The notes beneath the pieces are model-generated. The model had not been told where the DNA came from. It was given only the letters and a program-made list of their open reading frames with translations, and did no database searches. Source: Escherichia phage LH2. Taken from it: DNA of 64,000 nt. Below are positions 3,243 to 8,972 of this stretch, one piece after another. The stretch is from sequence record OQ378934.1. One strand, given 5' to 3'. The stretch's first letter is position 1. Every line of letters begins with the position of its first letter. A program made the position numbers and the translations under genes.

Positions 3243-3511
3243 TGTTTGTCGTTCACACTATTTATGAAAATGAAGGTAATACTACACGTGATTACGGTCA
3301 CGTAAATCAATTTTTTAGATGCAATCCAGAATTCCGAGCTCAAAAAGACGAACGAATTTTTAAAAAATGTGTAGAGCAAGGTTTCATTTACGTCAAGCAC
3401 TGGATGCAAGGAAATAAAGTTAGAACTACATATCATAAGTCTTTGCCTGAGCTTAATGATGAATTGATTTATAATAGAGCTGTAAATCAAACTCTGAAGG
3501 ATGAACAATGA
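3242..3511 (+). CDS. hypothetical protein, 89 aa
   Basis: ATG ORF overlapping the ligase start by 4 nt; position of T4 30.1. Confidence 0.5.
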   Translation: MFVVHTIYENEGNTTRDYGHVNQFFRCNPEFRAQKDERIFKKCVEQGFIYVKHWMQGNKVRTTYHKSLPELNDELIYNRAVNQTLKDEQ

Positions 3512-4968
3512 TTCTTAAAATTCTGAATGAAATAGCATCTATTGGATCAACTAAGCAGAAGCAAGCAATTCTTGAAAAGAATAAAGATAATGAATTGCTT
3601 AAACGGGTATATCGTCTGACTTATTCTCGTGGGTTACAGTATTATATCAAGAAATGGCCTAAACCTGGTATTGCTACCCAGAGTTTTGGAATGCTGACTA
3701 TTACCGATATGCTTGACTTCATTGAATTCACGTTAGCTACTCGGAAATTGACCGGAAATGCTGCAATTGAGGAATTGACTGGATATATCACCGATGGTAA
3801 AAAGGATGATGTTGAAGTTTTGCGTCGAGTGATGATGCGAGACCTTGAATGCGGTGCTTCAGTATCTATTGCAAACAAAGTTTGGCCAGGTTTAATTCCT
3901 GAACAACCTCAAATGCTGGCAAGTTCTTATGATGAAAAAGGCATTAGTAAGAATATCAAGTTTCCAGCTTTTGCACAGTTAAAAGCAGATGGAGCTCGGT
4001 GTTTTGCTGAAGTCCGAGGTGATGAATTAGATGATGTTCGTCTTTTATCACGAGCTGGTAATGAATATCTAGGATTAGATCTTCTTAAGGAAGAGTTAAT
4101 CAAAATGACTGCTGAAGCCCGCCAGATTCATCCAGAAGGTGTGTTAATTGACGGCGAATTGGTATACCATGAGCAAGTTGAAAAGGAACCAGAAGGCCTA
4201 GATTTTCTTTTTGATGCTCCTGAAATCAGTAAAGCTAAAGAGTTTGCCGAAGTAGCTGAATCTCGTACTGCTTCTAATGGAATCGCCAATAAATCTTTAA
4301 AGGGAACTATTTCAGAAAAAGAAGCCAAATGCATGAAGTTTCAGGTCTGGGATTATGTTCCGTTGGTAGAAATATACGGTCTTCCGGCGTTTCGTTTAAA
4401 ATATGATGTACGTTTTTCTAAACTAGAACAAATGACATCAGGATATAATAAAGTAATTTTAATTGAAAACCAAGTAGTAAATAACCTAGATGAAGCTAAG
4501 GTAATTTATAAAAAATATATTGACCAAGGTCTTGAAGGTATTATTCTCAAAAATACCGATGGATTGTGGGAAAATGCTCGTTCAAAAAATCTCTATAAAT
4601 TTAAAGAAGTAATTGATGTTGATTTAAAAATTGTAGGAATTTATCCTCACCGTAAAGACCCTACTAAAGCAGGTGGATTTATTCTTGAATCAGAGTGTGG
4701 AAAAATTAAAGTAAATGCAGGTTCAGGCTTAAAAGATAAAGCCGGTGTAAAATCACATGAACTTGACCGTACTCGCATTATGGAAAACCAAAATTATTAT
4801 ATTGGAAAAATTCTAGAGTGCGAATGCAACGGCTGGTTAAAATCTGATGGCCGCACTGATTACGTTAAATTATTTCTTCCAATTGCGATTCGTTTACGTG
4901 AAGATAAAACTAAAGCTAATACATTTGAGGATGTATTTGGTGATTTTCATGAGGTAACTGGTCTATGA
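3508..4968 (+). CDS. 30: ATP-dependent DNA ligase gp30
   Basis: 486 aa; active-site lysine motif KADGARC; near-identical to recalled T4 ligase. Confidence 0.95.
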   Translation: MILKILNEIASIGSTKQKQAILEKNKDNELLKRVYRLTYSRGLQYYIKKWPKPGIATQSFGMLTITDMLDFIEFTLATRKLTGNAAIEELTGYITDGKKDDVEVLRRVMMRDLECGASVSIANKVWPGLIPEQPQMLASSYDEKGISKNIKFPAFAQLKADGARCFAEVRGDELDDVRLLSRAGNEYLGLDLLKEELIKMTAEARQIHPEGVLIDGELVYHEQVEKEPEGLDFLFDAPEISKAKEFAEVAESRTASNGIANKSLKGTISEKEAKCMKFQVWDYVPLVEIYGLPAFRLKYDVRFSKLEQMTSGYNKVILIENQVVNNLDEAKVIYKKYIDQGLEGIILKNTDGLWENARSKNLYKFKEVIDVDLKIVGIYPHRKDPTKAGGFILESECGKIKVNAGSGLKDKAGVKSHELDRTRIMENQNYYIGKILECECNGWLKSDGRTDYVKLFLPIAIRLREDKTKANTFEDVFGDFHEVTGL

Positions 4969-5153
4969 AAGCTTACTTAGAAACAATTGTCATTGCTCAA
5001 AAAGAAGGTGGAGATGTTTCTACTTCTGTATCACAAATCGTTCTTGAATTTGTAGATGCATATGCTTATAATAAATTCACAGAAACATTTGATGCCTATG
5101 AAAAAGGTCCAAAGTTTGAAATATATCGTACTCTCTTACCATTAGATTATTAA
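4965..5153 (+). CDS. hypothetical protein, 62 aa
   Basis: ATG overlaps the ligase stop (ATGA); ends at a terminator hairpin. Confidence 0.45.
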   Translation: MKAYLETIVIAQKEGGDVSTSVSQIVLEFVDAYAYNKFTETFDAYEKGPKFEIYRTLLPLDY

Positions 5154-5174
5154 AGGCCTTCGGGCCTTTAATTT
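5152..5174 (+). terminator. rho-independent terminator
   Basis: Hairpin AAAGGCCTTCGGGCCTTT then AATTTT. Confidence 0.55.
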
Positions 5175-5182
5175 TATAAATA
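5175..5182 (+). promoter_or_regulatory. late promoter TATAAATA for alt
   Basis: Exact consensus 27 nt upstream of the alt ATG. Confidence 0.5.
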
Positions 5183-5208
5183 GAATAAGAATAAACACTA
5201 GAGAGGAT

Positions 5209-7266
5209 ATGATGGAACTCATTACAGAATTATTTGACGAAGATACTACTCTTCCGATTACAAACTTAAATCCAAAGAAGAAAATACCGCAAATTTTTTC
5301 AGTTCATGTTGATGACGCAATTGAACAACCAGGCTTTCGTTTATGTACCTATACATCTGGAGGTGATACTAACCGTGATTTAAAGATGGGCGATAAAATG
5401 ATGCATATTGTTCCTTTTACATTAACTGCTAAAGGTTCAATTGCTAAATTAAAAGGTCTCGGTCCAAGCCCAATTAATTACATCAATTCAGTTTTTACTG
5501 TTGCGATGCAAACGATGCGTCAGTATAAAATTGATGCCTGCATGCTTCGTATTCTTAAGTCTAAAACCGCTGGTCAAGCTCGACAAATTCAAGTTATTGC
5601 TGATAGACTTATCCGCAGTCGTTCAGGTGGCAGATACGTCCTTCTTAAGGAACTCTGGGATTACGATAAAAAGTATGCATATATTCTTATACATCGCAAA
5701 AATGTATCGCTAGAAGACATTCCAGGAGTTCCGGAAATTAGTACCGAGCTCTTTACTAAAGTTGAATCGAAGGTCGGCGATGTTTATATCAATAAAGATA
5801 CTGGAGCTCAAGTAACTAAAAATGAGGCAATTGCAGCATCTATTGCGCAAGAAAATGATAAACGTTCTGACCAAGCTGTAATCGTTAAAGTTAAAATTTC
5901 CCGTAGAGCAATTGCACAAAGTCAGTCATTAGAATCTTCTAGATTTGAAACACCAATGTTTCAAAAATTTGAGGCTTCAGCGGCAGAATTAAATAAACCC
6001 GCCGACGCACCTTTAATTTCTGATGCTAACGAATTAACTGTTATTTCTACTTCAGGATTTGCATTAGAGAATGCTCTTAGCAGTGTTACAGCTGGGATGG
6101 CATTCAGAGAAGCTTCTATAATTCCTGAAGATAAAGAATCCATTATTAATGCAGAAATAAAAAATAAAGCTTTAGAAAAATTACGAAAAGAATCTATTAC
6201 TTCAATAAAAACTTTAGAAACTATTGCTTCTATCGTCGATGATACTTTAGAAAAATATAAAGGTGCTTGGTTTGAAAGAAATATTAACAGACATTCGCAT
6301 TTAAACCAAGATGCTGCAAATGAGTTAGTACAAAATTCTTGGAATGCAATAAAAACAAAGATTATTCGAAGAGAATTACGTGGATATGCTCTTACCGCTG
6401 GATGGTCATTACATCCTATAGTCGAAAATAAAGATTCATCTAAATACACACCAGCGCAAAAACGCGGAATTCGTGAATATGTAGGTTCAGGATATGTAGA
6501 CATAAATAATGCTCTTTTGGGATTATATAATCCAGATGAGCGTACAAGTATTTTAACAGCACCTGAAATAGAACAAGCCATTGATAATTTAGATTCAGCC
6601 TTTAAAAATGGTGAACGATTACCAAAAGGTATTACTTTGTATCGTTCACAACGAATGTTACCTTCAATATATGAAGCAATGGTAAAAAATCGAGTTTTTT
6701 ATTTTAGAAACTTTGTGTCAACATCATTATATCCAAATATTTTTGGTACTTGGATGACTGATTCATCTGTGGGTGTTTTACCAGACGAAAAGCGTTTAAG
6801 TGTTTCTATTGATAAAACTGATGAAGGGCTTGTTAATTCTAGCGATAATTTAGTCGGAATTGGATGGGTTATTACTGGGGCTGATAAAGTCAATGTTGTT
6901 TTACCCGGTGGAAGTTTAGCGCCTTCAAATGAAATGGAAGTCATTTTGCCACGTGGATTAATGGTCAAAGTTAATAAAATAACCGATGCATCTTACAACG
7001 ATGGAACAGTTAGAACTAACAACAAGCTTATTCAAGCTGAAGTTATGACCACAGAAGAACTCACCGAATCGGTAATCTATGACGGAGACCATTTAATGGA
7101 AACTGGTGAATTGGTTGCAATGACAGGTGATATTGAAATAGAAGACAGAGTTGACTTTGCATCATTTGTTTCATCAAACGTTAAACAGAAAGTAGAATCA
7201 TCTCTCGGAATTATTGCGTCTTGCATAGATATTGCAAACATGCCTTACAAGTTCGTTCAAGGATAA
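5209..7266 (+). CDS. alt: Alt, capsid-packaged ADP-ribosyltransferase
   Basis: 685-aa ORF (T4 Alt is about 682 aa); assignment by size, recalled sequence and position next to gene 30. Confidence 0.85.
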   Translation: MMELITELFDEDTTLPITNLNPKKKIPQIFSVHVDDAIEQPGFRLCTYTSGGDTNRDLKMGDKMMHIVPFTLTAKGSIAKLKGLGPSPINYINSVFTVAMQTMRQYKIDACMLRILKSKTAGQARQIQVIADRLIRSRSGGRYVLLKELWDYDKKYAYILIHRKNVSLEDIPGVPEISTELFTKVESKVGDVYINKDTGAQVTKNEAIAASIAQENDKRSDQAVIVKVKISRRAIAQSQSLESSRFETPMFQKFEASAAELNKPADAPLISDANELTVISTSGFALENALSSVTAGMAFREASIIPEDKESIINAEIKNKALEKLRKESITSIKTLETIASIVDDTLEKYKGAWFERNINRHSHLNQDAANELVQNSWNAIKTKIIRRELRGYALTAGWSLHPIVENKDSSKYTPAQKRGIREYVGSGYVDINNALLGLYNPDERTSILTAPEIEQAIDNLDSAFKNGERLPKGITLYRSQRMLPSIYEAMVKNRVFYFRNFVSTSLYPNIFGTWMTDSSVGVLPDEKRLSVSIDKTDEGLVNSSDNLVGIGWVITGADKVNVVLPGGSLAPSNEMEVILPRGLMVKVNKITDASYNDGTVRTNNKLIQAEVMTTEELTESVIYDGDHLMETGELVAMTGDIEIEDRVDFASFVSSNVKQKVESSLGIIASCIDIANMPYKFVQG

Positions 7267-7269
7267 ATC

Positions 7270-7455
7270 GTGGAACTTATTACAGAATTATTTGACGGCG
7301 CTTCGGCGCCGGTTGTTAACTTAAATCCTAAGCATAAAATACCACAAATTTTTGCTATTCAAGCCGGCGAAGAAAGCGTGCTTCCTGGATTTAGATTTTG
7401 TACATACACCTCTGGCGGTGATACAAATAAAACGTTAAACCAGGCGACAAAATGA
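7270..7455 (+). CDS. paralog of the Alt N-terminus, fragment A (GTG start, 61 aa)
   Basis: MELITELFDGASAPVVNLNPKHKIPQIF... aligns to Alt residues 2 to about 60; frame ends where a 1-nt deletion relative to alt occurs. Confidence 0.4.
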   Translation: MELITELFDGASAPVVNLNPKHKIPQIFAIQAGEESVLPGFRFCTYTSGGDTNKTLNQATK

Positions 7456-7655
7456 TGCATATCGTAATGATAGGTGTTAATGAGAAACTATCATTAGTTA
7501 AGCTTAAAAACTTGGGTGGAAATCCAATTGGTGTCATTAATGCTGTTTTTGATACTGCTCTTCAAACAATGAAACAGTATAAAATCGACGCATGCCTATT
7601 ACGCGTACTAAAAAGTTCAAAATGTAGTTTACAAGTCCCTCGTGTTGTGTTATAA
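7452..7655 (+). CDS. paralog of the Alt N-terminus, fragment B (67 aa)
   Basis: MMHIVMIGVNEKLSLVKLKNLGGNPIGVINAVFDTALQTMKQYKIDACLLRVLKS aligns to Alt residues 65-130 in a shifted frame. Confidence 0.4.
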   Translation: MMHIVMIGVNEKLSLVKLKNLGGNPIGVINAVFDTALQTMKQYKIDACLLRVLKSSKCSLQVPRVVL

Positions 7656-7687
7656 TAATCTTACTGACATAACACGAGGAACACAAA

Positions 7688-7978
7688 ATGAAATCTTCTT
7701 TGCGCTTTTTAGGTCAAGAACTTGTAGTTGAAGGCGTTATTCCTGCTGATAATGCTTTTAATGAAGCAGTTTACGATGAATTTATCAAAATTTTTGGAAC
7801 AGATAAAAAGTTCGGAATTTTTCCTTCTGAAAATTTTTCAAAGCCAGAGCAGACTGAAAGTATTTTCCAAGGTGTAGTAACAGGTAAATTTGAGTCAGAA
7901 GCTCCGGTAAAAATTGAAGTTTATATTGAAGACAGTTTAGTTGCTTCAGTTGCTGCTTTTATTTCATTCCGTAAATAA
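7688..7978 (+). CDS. hypothetical protein, 96 aa
   Basis: ATG ORF ending at a convergent terminator. Confidence 0.5.
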   Translation: MKSSLRFLGQELVVEGVIPADNAFNEAVYDEFIKIFGTDKKFGIFPSENFSKPEQTESIFQGVVTGKFESEAPVKIEVYIEDSLVASVAAFISFRK

Positions 7979-7984
7979 AAATAT

Positions 7985-8002
7985 GGGGACCGAAAGGTCC
8001 CC
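7985..8002. terminator. bidirectional terminator hairpin between convergent transcripts
   Basis: GGGGACCGAAAGGTCCCC with A/T runs on both sides. Confidence 0.6.
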
Positions 8003-8006
8003 ATTG

Positions 8007-8972
8007 TTATATTGCTCCTAATATTTTACTTTGCGAGTTGACAATTCCCGTCATAGTATTAATGTTTGAAATGCTTCCTGAGGTTCCTCCTAGTCTACTA
8101 AGTCGTGAAAGCGAATTAGATAGTCCAGTAACACCTCCACTATTTCCGAGAACGCTTTGAATGCCATTTATAGCAGCAGATTCAAGCCACTCAAGCGCAG
8201 CTTGTCTATCAACCGACCCAGCCTGCATGACTCTATACGCAAAAGTAACATCAAATGTAGTTATTTGGTTATCTCCATCATATGATAACTCAGGAGCGCT
8301 CACTGACACTGGAATGCATCCGGTGAACATCACAGCAGTATGAGGTAATCCATTACGAGCATGAAGATTAACCTGAATGTCTGCTTCAACATCTTGCGGC
8401 AAAGCACGTAATCCAGTTACTGGGTCTTGAACAGCGTTAACCCAGTCTTGCATCGCACGATAATTACATGCTTCTGAATCCATCCTAAATGAAATAACCA
8501 AAGGGTCTAATTCTCTCCCAGTTATACGAATATTAGGAGAATTATAGTTCCAGTCAGTTTCATAGGATAATCTATTCTCTGGCATTTTTACAGAATATAT
8601 CATCAATCCAGATGAGTTATATGCCATGTTAAAGAAGTCAATTAAATATGTACCAACCGTAAATGAGCCTAATAAACTTTGAACTGTGCGTTGACTCATG
8701 GCACCAATAAGATATTTACTGACTCCTGATTTTCTTATTAGTTTTTGTGTGCCAGCTGTAATTAGCGTGGTAATTCCCTGATTAATATCACCTTGAGTTA
8801 ATCCTAACCAATTTGAATTTAGGCCCAAGTTATTATAAGAAAAGTTGCTAATTGAACTTATCAACGAAGAGCTTTTAGTTGATGGAGTTGTCGCAAAAAC
8901 GCAGCTAAACATATTATTACGTTGGAAATCTGCGTTTATTGCTTGATTATTAAATTCCTCTAAAGAATACAT
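8007..8972 (-). CDS. 54: baseplate tail-tube initiator gp54
   Basis: 321 aa; synteny 54-48-29-28-27-51 and T4 length. Confidence 0.85.
   Translation of the reverse strand: MYSLEEFNNQAINADFQRNNMFSCVFATTPSTKSSSLISSISNFSYNNLGLNSNWLGLTQGDINQGITTLITAGTQKLIRKSGVSKYLIGAMSQRTVQSLLGSFTVGTYLIDFFNMAYNSSGLMIYSVKMPENRLSYETDWNYNSPNIRITGRELDPLVISFRMDSEACNYRAMQDWVNAVQDPVTGLRALPQDVEADIQVNLHARNGLPHTAVMFTGCIPVSVSAPELSYDGDNQITTFDVTFAYRVMQAGSVDRQAALEWLESAAINGIQSVLGNSGGVTGLSNSLSRLSRLGGTSGSISNINTMTGIVNSQSKILGAI

Follow-up and report, generated by a model that had tools for sequence, protein, structure and literature searches.

Positions 7270-7655 of the DNA analysed here (the window, 64,000 nt of Escherichia phage LH2, OQ378934.1) are very probably the relic of a second, full-length tandem paralog of alt, the gene known as alt.-2 in RB14, RB32 and RB51. 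The relic is the counterpart of the two small reading frames alt.-1 and alt.-2 of T4 taken together. Three observations mark it as a pseudogene: (i) an intact homologue stands at the same position in relatives; (ii) disabling lesions are independent across lineages; (iii) selective constraint is relaxed. We infer that the relic has no protein function and is decaying.

This history is already known and annotated for T4. According to the GenBank record of T4T, the two genes 'together reflect a deletion and further frame shift in the second copy of gene alt'. In Nolan et al. 2006 (PMC1524935) both appear among the paralogous duplications of alt. The record of phage fPS-2 labels its ORF at this locus 'putative pseudogene'.

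Genome setting and gene map

The LH2 window comes from a T4-type phage about 98% identical to T4. A 501-nt query over the 7270-7655 region matched 502 phage records at 90-99% identity, nearly all of them Tequatrovirus, with T4 at 98%. Across alt.-1, alt.-2 and alt.-3 the T4T record and the window share about 98% nucleotide identity, and the ORF map and the public annotation of the region are concordant. Upstream lie the DNA ligase gene (gene 30, 3508-4968) and alt.1 (4965-5153, 62 aa), the latter 'hypothetical' in T4T. The whole length of the alt.1 product matches a recent Pfam family, PF24647 'Phage blade protein' (E=9e-30). The plus-strand gene at 5209-7266, alt in T4T, encodes the Alt ADP-ribosyltransferase, with PF03496 (ADPrib_exo_Tox) at residues 375-615 (E=1.4e-34); it is the functional copy and the paralog of the relic. 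The start of T4 alt corresponds to the second ATG of the window ORF, at 5212.

Downstream of the relic, and on the same strand, alt.-3 (7688-7978, DUF5498; Pfam PF17602, E=1.4e-64) is intact and provides the right-hand landmark of the deletion described below. The baseplate genes 54 and 48 follow on the opposite strand. Between the convergent genes alt.-3 and 54, positions 7983-8004 form a perfect 9-bp GC-rich hairpin (ATGGGGACC gaaa GGTCCCCAT), which scores as terminator-like on both strands and is probably a bidirectional terminator.

The relic itself contains the two plus-strand ORFs that the original prediction had placed there: alt.-1 (7270-7455, GTG start, 61 aa) and alt.-2 (7452-7655, ATG start, 67 aa), which overlap in ATGA. 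Both are annotated in T4T, and the interval 7270-7655 corresponds to T4 coordinates 123065-123450. Minus-strand ORFs of 33-49 aa across the same interval were rejected as unsupported; T4T annotates nothing there.

Similarity of the relic to alt

The idea of a tandem, alt-like copy interrupted by a 1-nt gap was borne out by nucleotide alignment. Positions 7270-7616 are collinear with alt 5212-5565, with 234 of 345 aligned positions identical (68%) and a single 1-nt gap. The alignment score of 98 lies far beyond chance, 200 shuffles giving -59 +/- 7. At the protein level, the frame-restored relic is 62% identical to Alt residues 1-117 over 117 residues (E=1e-49). The PHROG profile phrog_802 (Alt-like) is matched by alt.-1 at profile positions 2-61 and by alt.-2 at 64-120; the frame-restored 128 aa match it with E=5.5e-51, which establishes homology to the Alt family.

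The extent of the similarity had been overestimated. It had been thought to reach Alt residue 130 or so and ends at about residue 117; nor is the second ORF Alt-like to its end, as had been supposed, its last 12 codons (SKCSLQVPRVVL) being unrelated to Alt. They derive from the final codons of the ancestral second copy, read in a shifted frame, and from the intergenic promoter beyond them. The 1-nt deletion held to end the first ORF could be placed in a run of adenines at 7429-7432 (plus strand), where A5 has become A4. The first frame, alt.-1, thus keeps the ancestral frame for its first 54 codons; 7 codons in the shifted frame follow before TGA. The second, alt.-2, carries ancestral codons 62-116 of the second copy (MMHIV...LRVLKS) and 12 new codons across the deletion junction. 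The ATGA in which the two overlap comes from the ancestral AAA ATG ATG, which both frames now read.

A Pfam search of the 128-aa remnant matched no family, and the ADP-ribosyltransferase catalytic domain is absent from it. That domain occupies residues 375-615 of alt and 416-620 of the second copy in RB14, inside the 1,699 bp that the window lacks.

A full-length second Alt paralog in relatives

When the frame-restored protein was used in tblastn, many close relatives matched residues 1-116 in one piece, at about 99%, inside a gene annotated as Alt-like. A search of related phages for an intact copy, as the original prediction had advised, thus found a 685-aa second Alt paralog at the same site. 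In RB14 it is the gene 'alt.-2' (2,058 nt), between alt and alt.-3, and it has an ART domain of its own (PF03496, E=9e-20). Its product and Alt align collinearly for about 683 residues, with 41% identity. A 2,058-nt gene is found at this position in RB14, G50, GiZh, SHFML-26, RB6, sb2, KK4 and others. A complete, collinear second paralog with its own ART domain in relatives implies that the ancestral state was two complete tandem paralogs rather than a partial duplication. The suggestion of a pseudogene derived from a partial duplication is therefore right as to the pseudogene and wrong as to its source.

The two paralogs are not equally similar along their length: residues 1-116 are 62% identical, residues 117-250 71%, and later segments 23-40%. 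The block common to both is thus the N-terminal part of about 250 residues, and truncation at residue 116 cuts inside it.

A separate pattern is seen when the first copies are compared. Window Alt and RB14 Alt are 97-100% identical over residues 1-250 and 96% identical at the C-terminal end, with only 31% identity over about 251-400 and 62% over 401-620. The central part of alt looks like a cassette that is swapped or hypervariable between close relatives.

Deletion and frameshift

BLAST of the window against RB14 returned two segments, 7200-7616 and 7608-8000, which overlap by 9 nt and between which 1,699 bp of RB14 have no counterpart in the window. The window follows the RB14 second copy with a 96% match up to 7616, and the match resumes from 7608. 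The 9-nt overlap is CTAAAAAGT. RB14 has two copies of it, one at each end of the missing segment; the window has a single copy, at 7608-7616 on the plus strand, the deletion junction. A loss of 1,699 bp, which is not divisible by three, takes the truncated frame through the final codons of the old gene in the wrong register; the frame runs past the ancestral TAG and ends at a TAA within the -10 box of the next promoter, which is the stop of alt.-2. The adenine run is AAAAA in full-length second copies, RB14 among them, and in truncated copies with an unshifted frame (N2, SG1 and others); it is AAAA in the window and in T4T. Phage N2 has the deletion without the frameshift and a single 128-aa ORF.

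The sequence comparison shows a history in three steps. An old tandem duplication produced two Alt paralogs, now about 41% identical overall, both of which most Tequatrovirus phages have kept. The lineage of T4 and the window then lost 1,699 bp between the 9-bp direct repeats, and codons 1-116 were joined, in a shifted frame, to the very end of the gene (its final few codons) and to the region of the alt.-3 promoter. The product was a 128-codon ORF of the kind still present in N2. The loss of 1 nt in the A5 run split this ORF into frames of 61 and 67 codons.

The reverse order of events would make the relic a duplication of the 5' part of alt only, and the long second copy of the RB14 type the result of a later insertion. 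The GenBank record of GiZh is worded in this sense ('apparent insertion in alt.-2'), but the long form is a complete Alt paralog that remains collinear to the C-terminus of alt and brings its own ART domain, and it is the majority state among matching records. The direct repeat, flanking the missing segment in the long form and present as one copy in the short form, is the signature of a deletion. In addition, the short form reads across the last codons and the stop of the long form out of frame. We consider an insertion exceedingly improbable, and deletion from a complete second copy remains the preferred history.

Census of relatives

A 165-nt query centred on the junction matched 499 phage records, and 90 of these cover the junction in one piece. 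The remaining records among the matches listed align on one side only (the right half), and those that were fetched hold a full-length second copy. Judged from the lack of the junction, the full-length second paralog would be the state in roughly 400 of some 500 related records. The census is based on the GenBank phage collection, the yield from IMG/VR being too small: the exact junction pattern was present in only 2 contigs there, and a protein-based search for the locus gave 8 loci, only 2 with full-length second copies.

The truncated copies themselves differ in reading frame. The best 60 tblastn rows, all of which bear the junction, comprise 17 copies in one frame, 42 that are frameshifted and 1 with a further indel. 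Among the rows listed, an intact 128-codon ORF was found only in N2, SYGD1, AV121, FL23 and FL44 (the last inferred from its tblastn row). The codon-6 change of GAA to TAA was searched for with a specific 30-mer, which is present in 45 records; almost none of these has a CDS annotated over the site. This stop is present in about half of the truncated copies.

In many GenBank records, relic fragments that have no catalytic domain are nevertheless annotated 'RNA polymerase-ADP-ribosyltransferase' or 'ADP-ribosyltransferase exoenzyme'; examples are SG1 (L002 3179-3457), F25 (L016 301-707) and SYGD1 (L007 301-687). These enzyme labels are an annotation error spread by homology transfer.

Lesions and selective constraint

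Nineteen truncated copies (the window and 18 others) were compared with 11 full-length second copies over the 116 codons that they share. The A5 to A4 frameshift is present in 7 of the 19. The codon-6 stop, at the equivalent of window position 7285, is present in 10 (loci L002, L010-L015, L017-L019) and is found on both A5 and A4 backgrounds. Further lesions are a 9-nt deletion in the truncated copy of phage F1 and a second 1-nt deletion, inside the junction repeat, in phage F25. The GTG start of alt.-1 (7270) is private to the window, the start being ATG in the other 18 truncated copies and in each of the 11 full-length ones. Stop and frameshift alleles occur in all four combinations, which points to recombination among relic alleles or to recurrent slippage in the A-run.

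The protein in the ancestral frame is nearly invariant across the copies, which taken alone would suggest selection on the relic. The distribution of variants indicates otherwise. Those private to truncated copies comprise 11 replacements or lesions and 4 synonymous changes, and those in, or shared with, full-length copies comprise 3 and 39 (Fisher p=2e-6), in a modest sample of 19 truncated and 11 full-length copies in which variants scored as private, such as F111L, may occur in other full-length copies. The neutral expectation for relic sequence is 78% non-synonymous. As the private changes are mostly replacements or lesions and the synonymous variants are shared with full-length copies, the synonymous diversity of the relic would be inherited from functional alleles. 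Changes that arise within the relics look unconstrained on this comparison. The conserved-looking relic protein would then have come down from full-length alleles by shared ancestry or recombination, and the relic DNA presumably persists mainly because it is young and adjoins the promoter and hairpin of alt.-3.

Expression and possible products

Some translation of alt.-1 and alt.-2 is likely: an AAGGA Shine-Dalgarno sequence lies 7 nt upstream of the alt.-1 start and is usable, and the ATGA overlap could permit coupled translation of alt.-2. In a time-resolved study of T4 infection (Wolfram-Schauerte et al. 2022, PMC9697503, Table S2), transcripts of both were found and classed as middle. Neither protein was detected in T4-infected cells in that data set, in which the Alt.-3 protein was detected; shotgun proteomics readily overlooks proteins as small as these (6.6 and 7.4 kDa), and their non-detection is weak evidence for a pseudogene.

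On a rival reading, alt.-1 and alt.-2 would be two functional small proteins that reuse pieces of the Alt N-terminus, alt.-2 being coupled at the ATGA, with capsid targeting or competition with Alt for a partner as example roles. Transcription of both frames in T4, the AAGGA site, the overlap and the near invariance of the ancestral-frame sequence are all compatible with this. So is the retention in alt.-1 of the first six residues, MELITE, which we take to resemble the short propeptide that the T4 prohead protease cleaves from the N-terminus of Alt. Against this, the invariance is accounted for by synonymous variants common to full-length copies, private changes being mostly replacements or lesions. 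The alt.-1 frame is closed at codon 6 in the 45 records with the stop, and 17 rows among the best 60 from tblastn do not show the two-ORF arrangement. The cut at residue 116 lies within the block of about 250 residues common to the paralogs, and residues that are new through frame-shifting number 7 out of 61 in alt.-1 and 12 out of 67 in alt.-2. With neither protein detected in T4 (PMC9697503), the pair of small proteins sharing an Alt N-terminal module, one of the readings first put forward, becomes quite improbable.

The third reading put forward was a substrate for programmed frameshifting. In that case a -1 shift, for instance through tRNA-Lys slippage at A AAA UGA (7449-7455), would yield a fused product of about 127 aa from the two frames. 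The second frame is indeed -1 relative to the first and open only from 7431, and where A AAA adjoins a stop codon a single tRNA could slip at a low level. Direct reading of the 7431-7452 overlap nevertheless reveals no heptamer of the form X XXY YYZ. From 7429 to 7455 the zero frame reads AAA ACG TTA AAC CAG GCG ACA AAA TGA, in which the only conceivable site is a single-tRNA one, A AAA UGA. The string AAAATGATG represents the ancestral K-M-M codons and is also present in full-length copies. No significant stimulatory RNA structure was found downstream: the 86 nt at 7445-7530 fold at -15.5 kcal/mol (z=-1.77), a value equalled by 12 of 200 shuffles. In relatives the region is in one frame (17 of the 60 best rows) or the upstream frame is closed at codon 6 (45 records). 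The two-frame arrangement is not kept among relatives and is thus not under selection. Lacking a heptamer, a significant structure (z=-1.8) and conservation, the site is given almost no credence as a programmed frameshift signal. A run of four adenines is far too short for transcriptional slippage, and this possibility, considered for 7429-7432, was rejected.

There is a very slight chance that pieces of the Alt N-terminus with the MELITE leader are made and active in the T4-type lineage, the candidates being alt.-1, alt.-2 or a fusion of about 127 aa made by occasional -1 slippage at A AAA UGA. Possible roles for such Alt N-terminal fragments are head packaging, or competition with Alt for a packaging or scaffold partner. 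A decaying pseudogene, probably with some translation, remains our reading of the locus.

The alt.-3 promoter and hairpin

A promoter-like site lies at 7628-7656 on the plus strand (TTTACA, 17 nt, TATAAT, with TG upstream of the -10 box). It overlaps the end of alt.-2 and falls outside the relic proper. With 11 of 12 consensus positions it is the best match in 5100-8050, and a promoter is annotated at the equivalent place in phage Lutter. An early-type promoter for alt.-3 fits the early class assigned to alt.-3 at both transcript and protein level (PMC9697503, Table S2).

The hairpin that had been noticed at 7639-7677 is real, with different limits: it spans 7638-7679 on the plus strand, with about 16 pairs. 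Its folding energy is -23.2 kcal/mol (z=-5.8), and the GAGG Shine-Dalgarno sequence of alt.-3 (7676-7679) lies in its 3' arm. RNA beginning at 7662, roughly the predicted start of the promoter, folds at only -2.4 kcal/mol; this internal promoter is predicted to start transcription beyond the 5' arm, and RNA made from it cannot fold into the stem. Base pair 7642-7675 of the stem varies between phages: G-C in the window, G-U in T4T, A-U in RB14. A stable stem that contains the Shine-Dalgarno sequence, together with a promoter whose transcript lacks the 5' arm, is the arrangement of T4-type hairpins that hide a ribosome-binding site. An Rfam search of 7000-8100 gave chance-level matches far below the gathering scores, with the hairpin covered by no known RNA family.

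Significance and comparison with known systems

Copies of alt.-1 and alt.-2 labelled 'hypothetical protein' or 'ADP-ribosyltransferase' are best read as one decaying pseudogene, and not as enzymes or new small proteins. The importance of this is small beyond correct annotation. The locus offers a worked example of gene loss in T-even phages, in which a deletion between 9-bp repeats is followed by homopolymer slippage and then by scattered point lesions, whilst recombination with intact alleles keeps the relic looking conserved. Biological interest shifts to what the undamaged second Alt paralog does in most T4 relatives, where it has been kept.

That paralog, annotated 'alt.-2' or 'Alt-like RNA polymerase ADP-ribosyltransferase' in RB14, RB32, RB51, RB6 and further phages, occupies the same site as the relic, between alt and alt.-3. 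Its first 116 codons and the relic share 96% nucleotide and about 99% amino-acid identity. The full-length paralog has 685 aa and an ART domain, whereas the window lacks codons 117-685 and is frameshifted. The closest counterpart is T4, in which alt.-1 (6.6 kDa, P39495) and alt.-2 (7.4 kDa, P39494) have the same locus, deletion junction and A4 frameshift as in the window. The window differs from T4 in the alt.-1 start (GTG, not ATG), in residue 60 of alt.-1 (T60, not I60) and in the -10 box at the end of alt.-2 (TATAAT, not TATAGT).

Established frameshift sites, such as E. coli dnaX (A AAA AAG) and the G/GT sites of phage tail chaperones, resemble the window in having overlapping -1 frames and, here, an A-rich overlap. 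Unlike them, the window has no slippery heptamer and no stimulatory structure, and its arrangement is not conserved in close relatives.

In T4, hairpins of genes e, soc, 49 and I-TevI have an internal promoter and mask the ribosome-binding site on transcripts that read through from upstream (Uzan and Miller 2010, PMC3014915). The hairpin at 7638-7679 looks like one of this type, by analogy of its layout: across 7628-7679, as in these genes, the Shine-Dalgarno sequence lies in the 3' arm and an internal promoter lies inside the structure. The difference is in the class of promoter, which is an early, sigma-70-type promoter in the window and the late TATAAATA promoter in the e, soc, 49 and I-TevI type.
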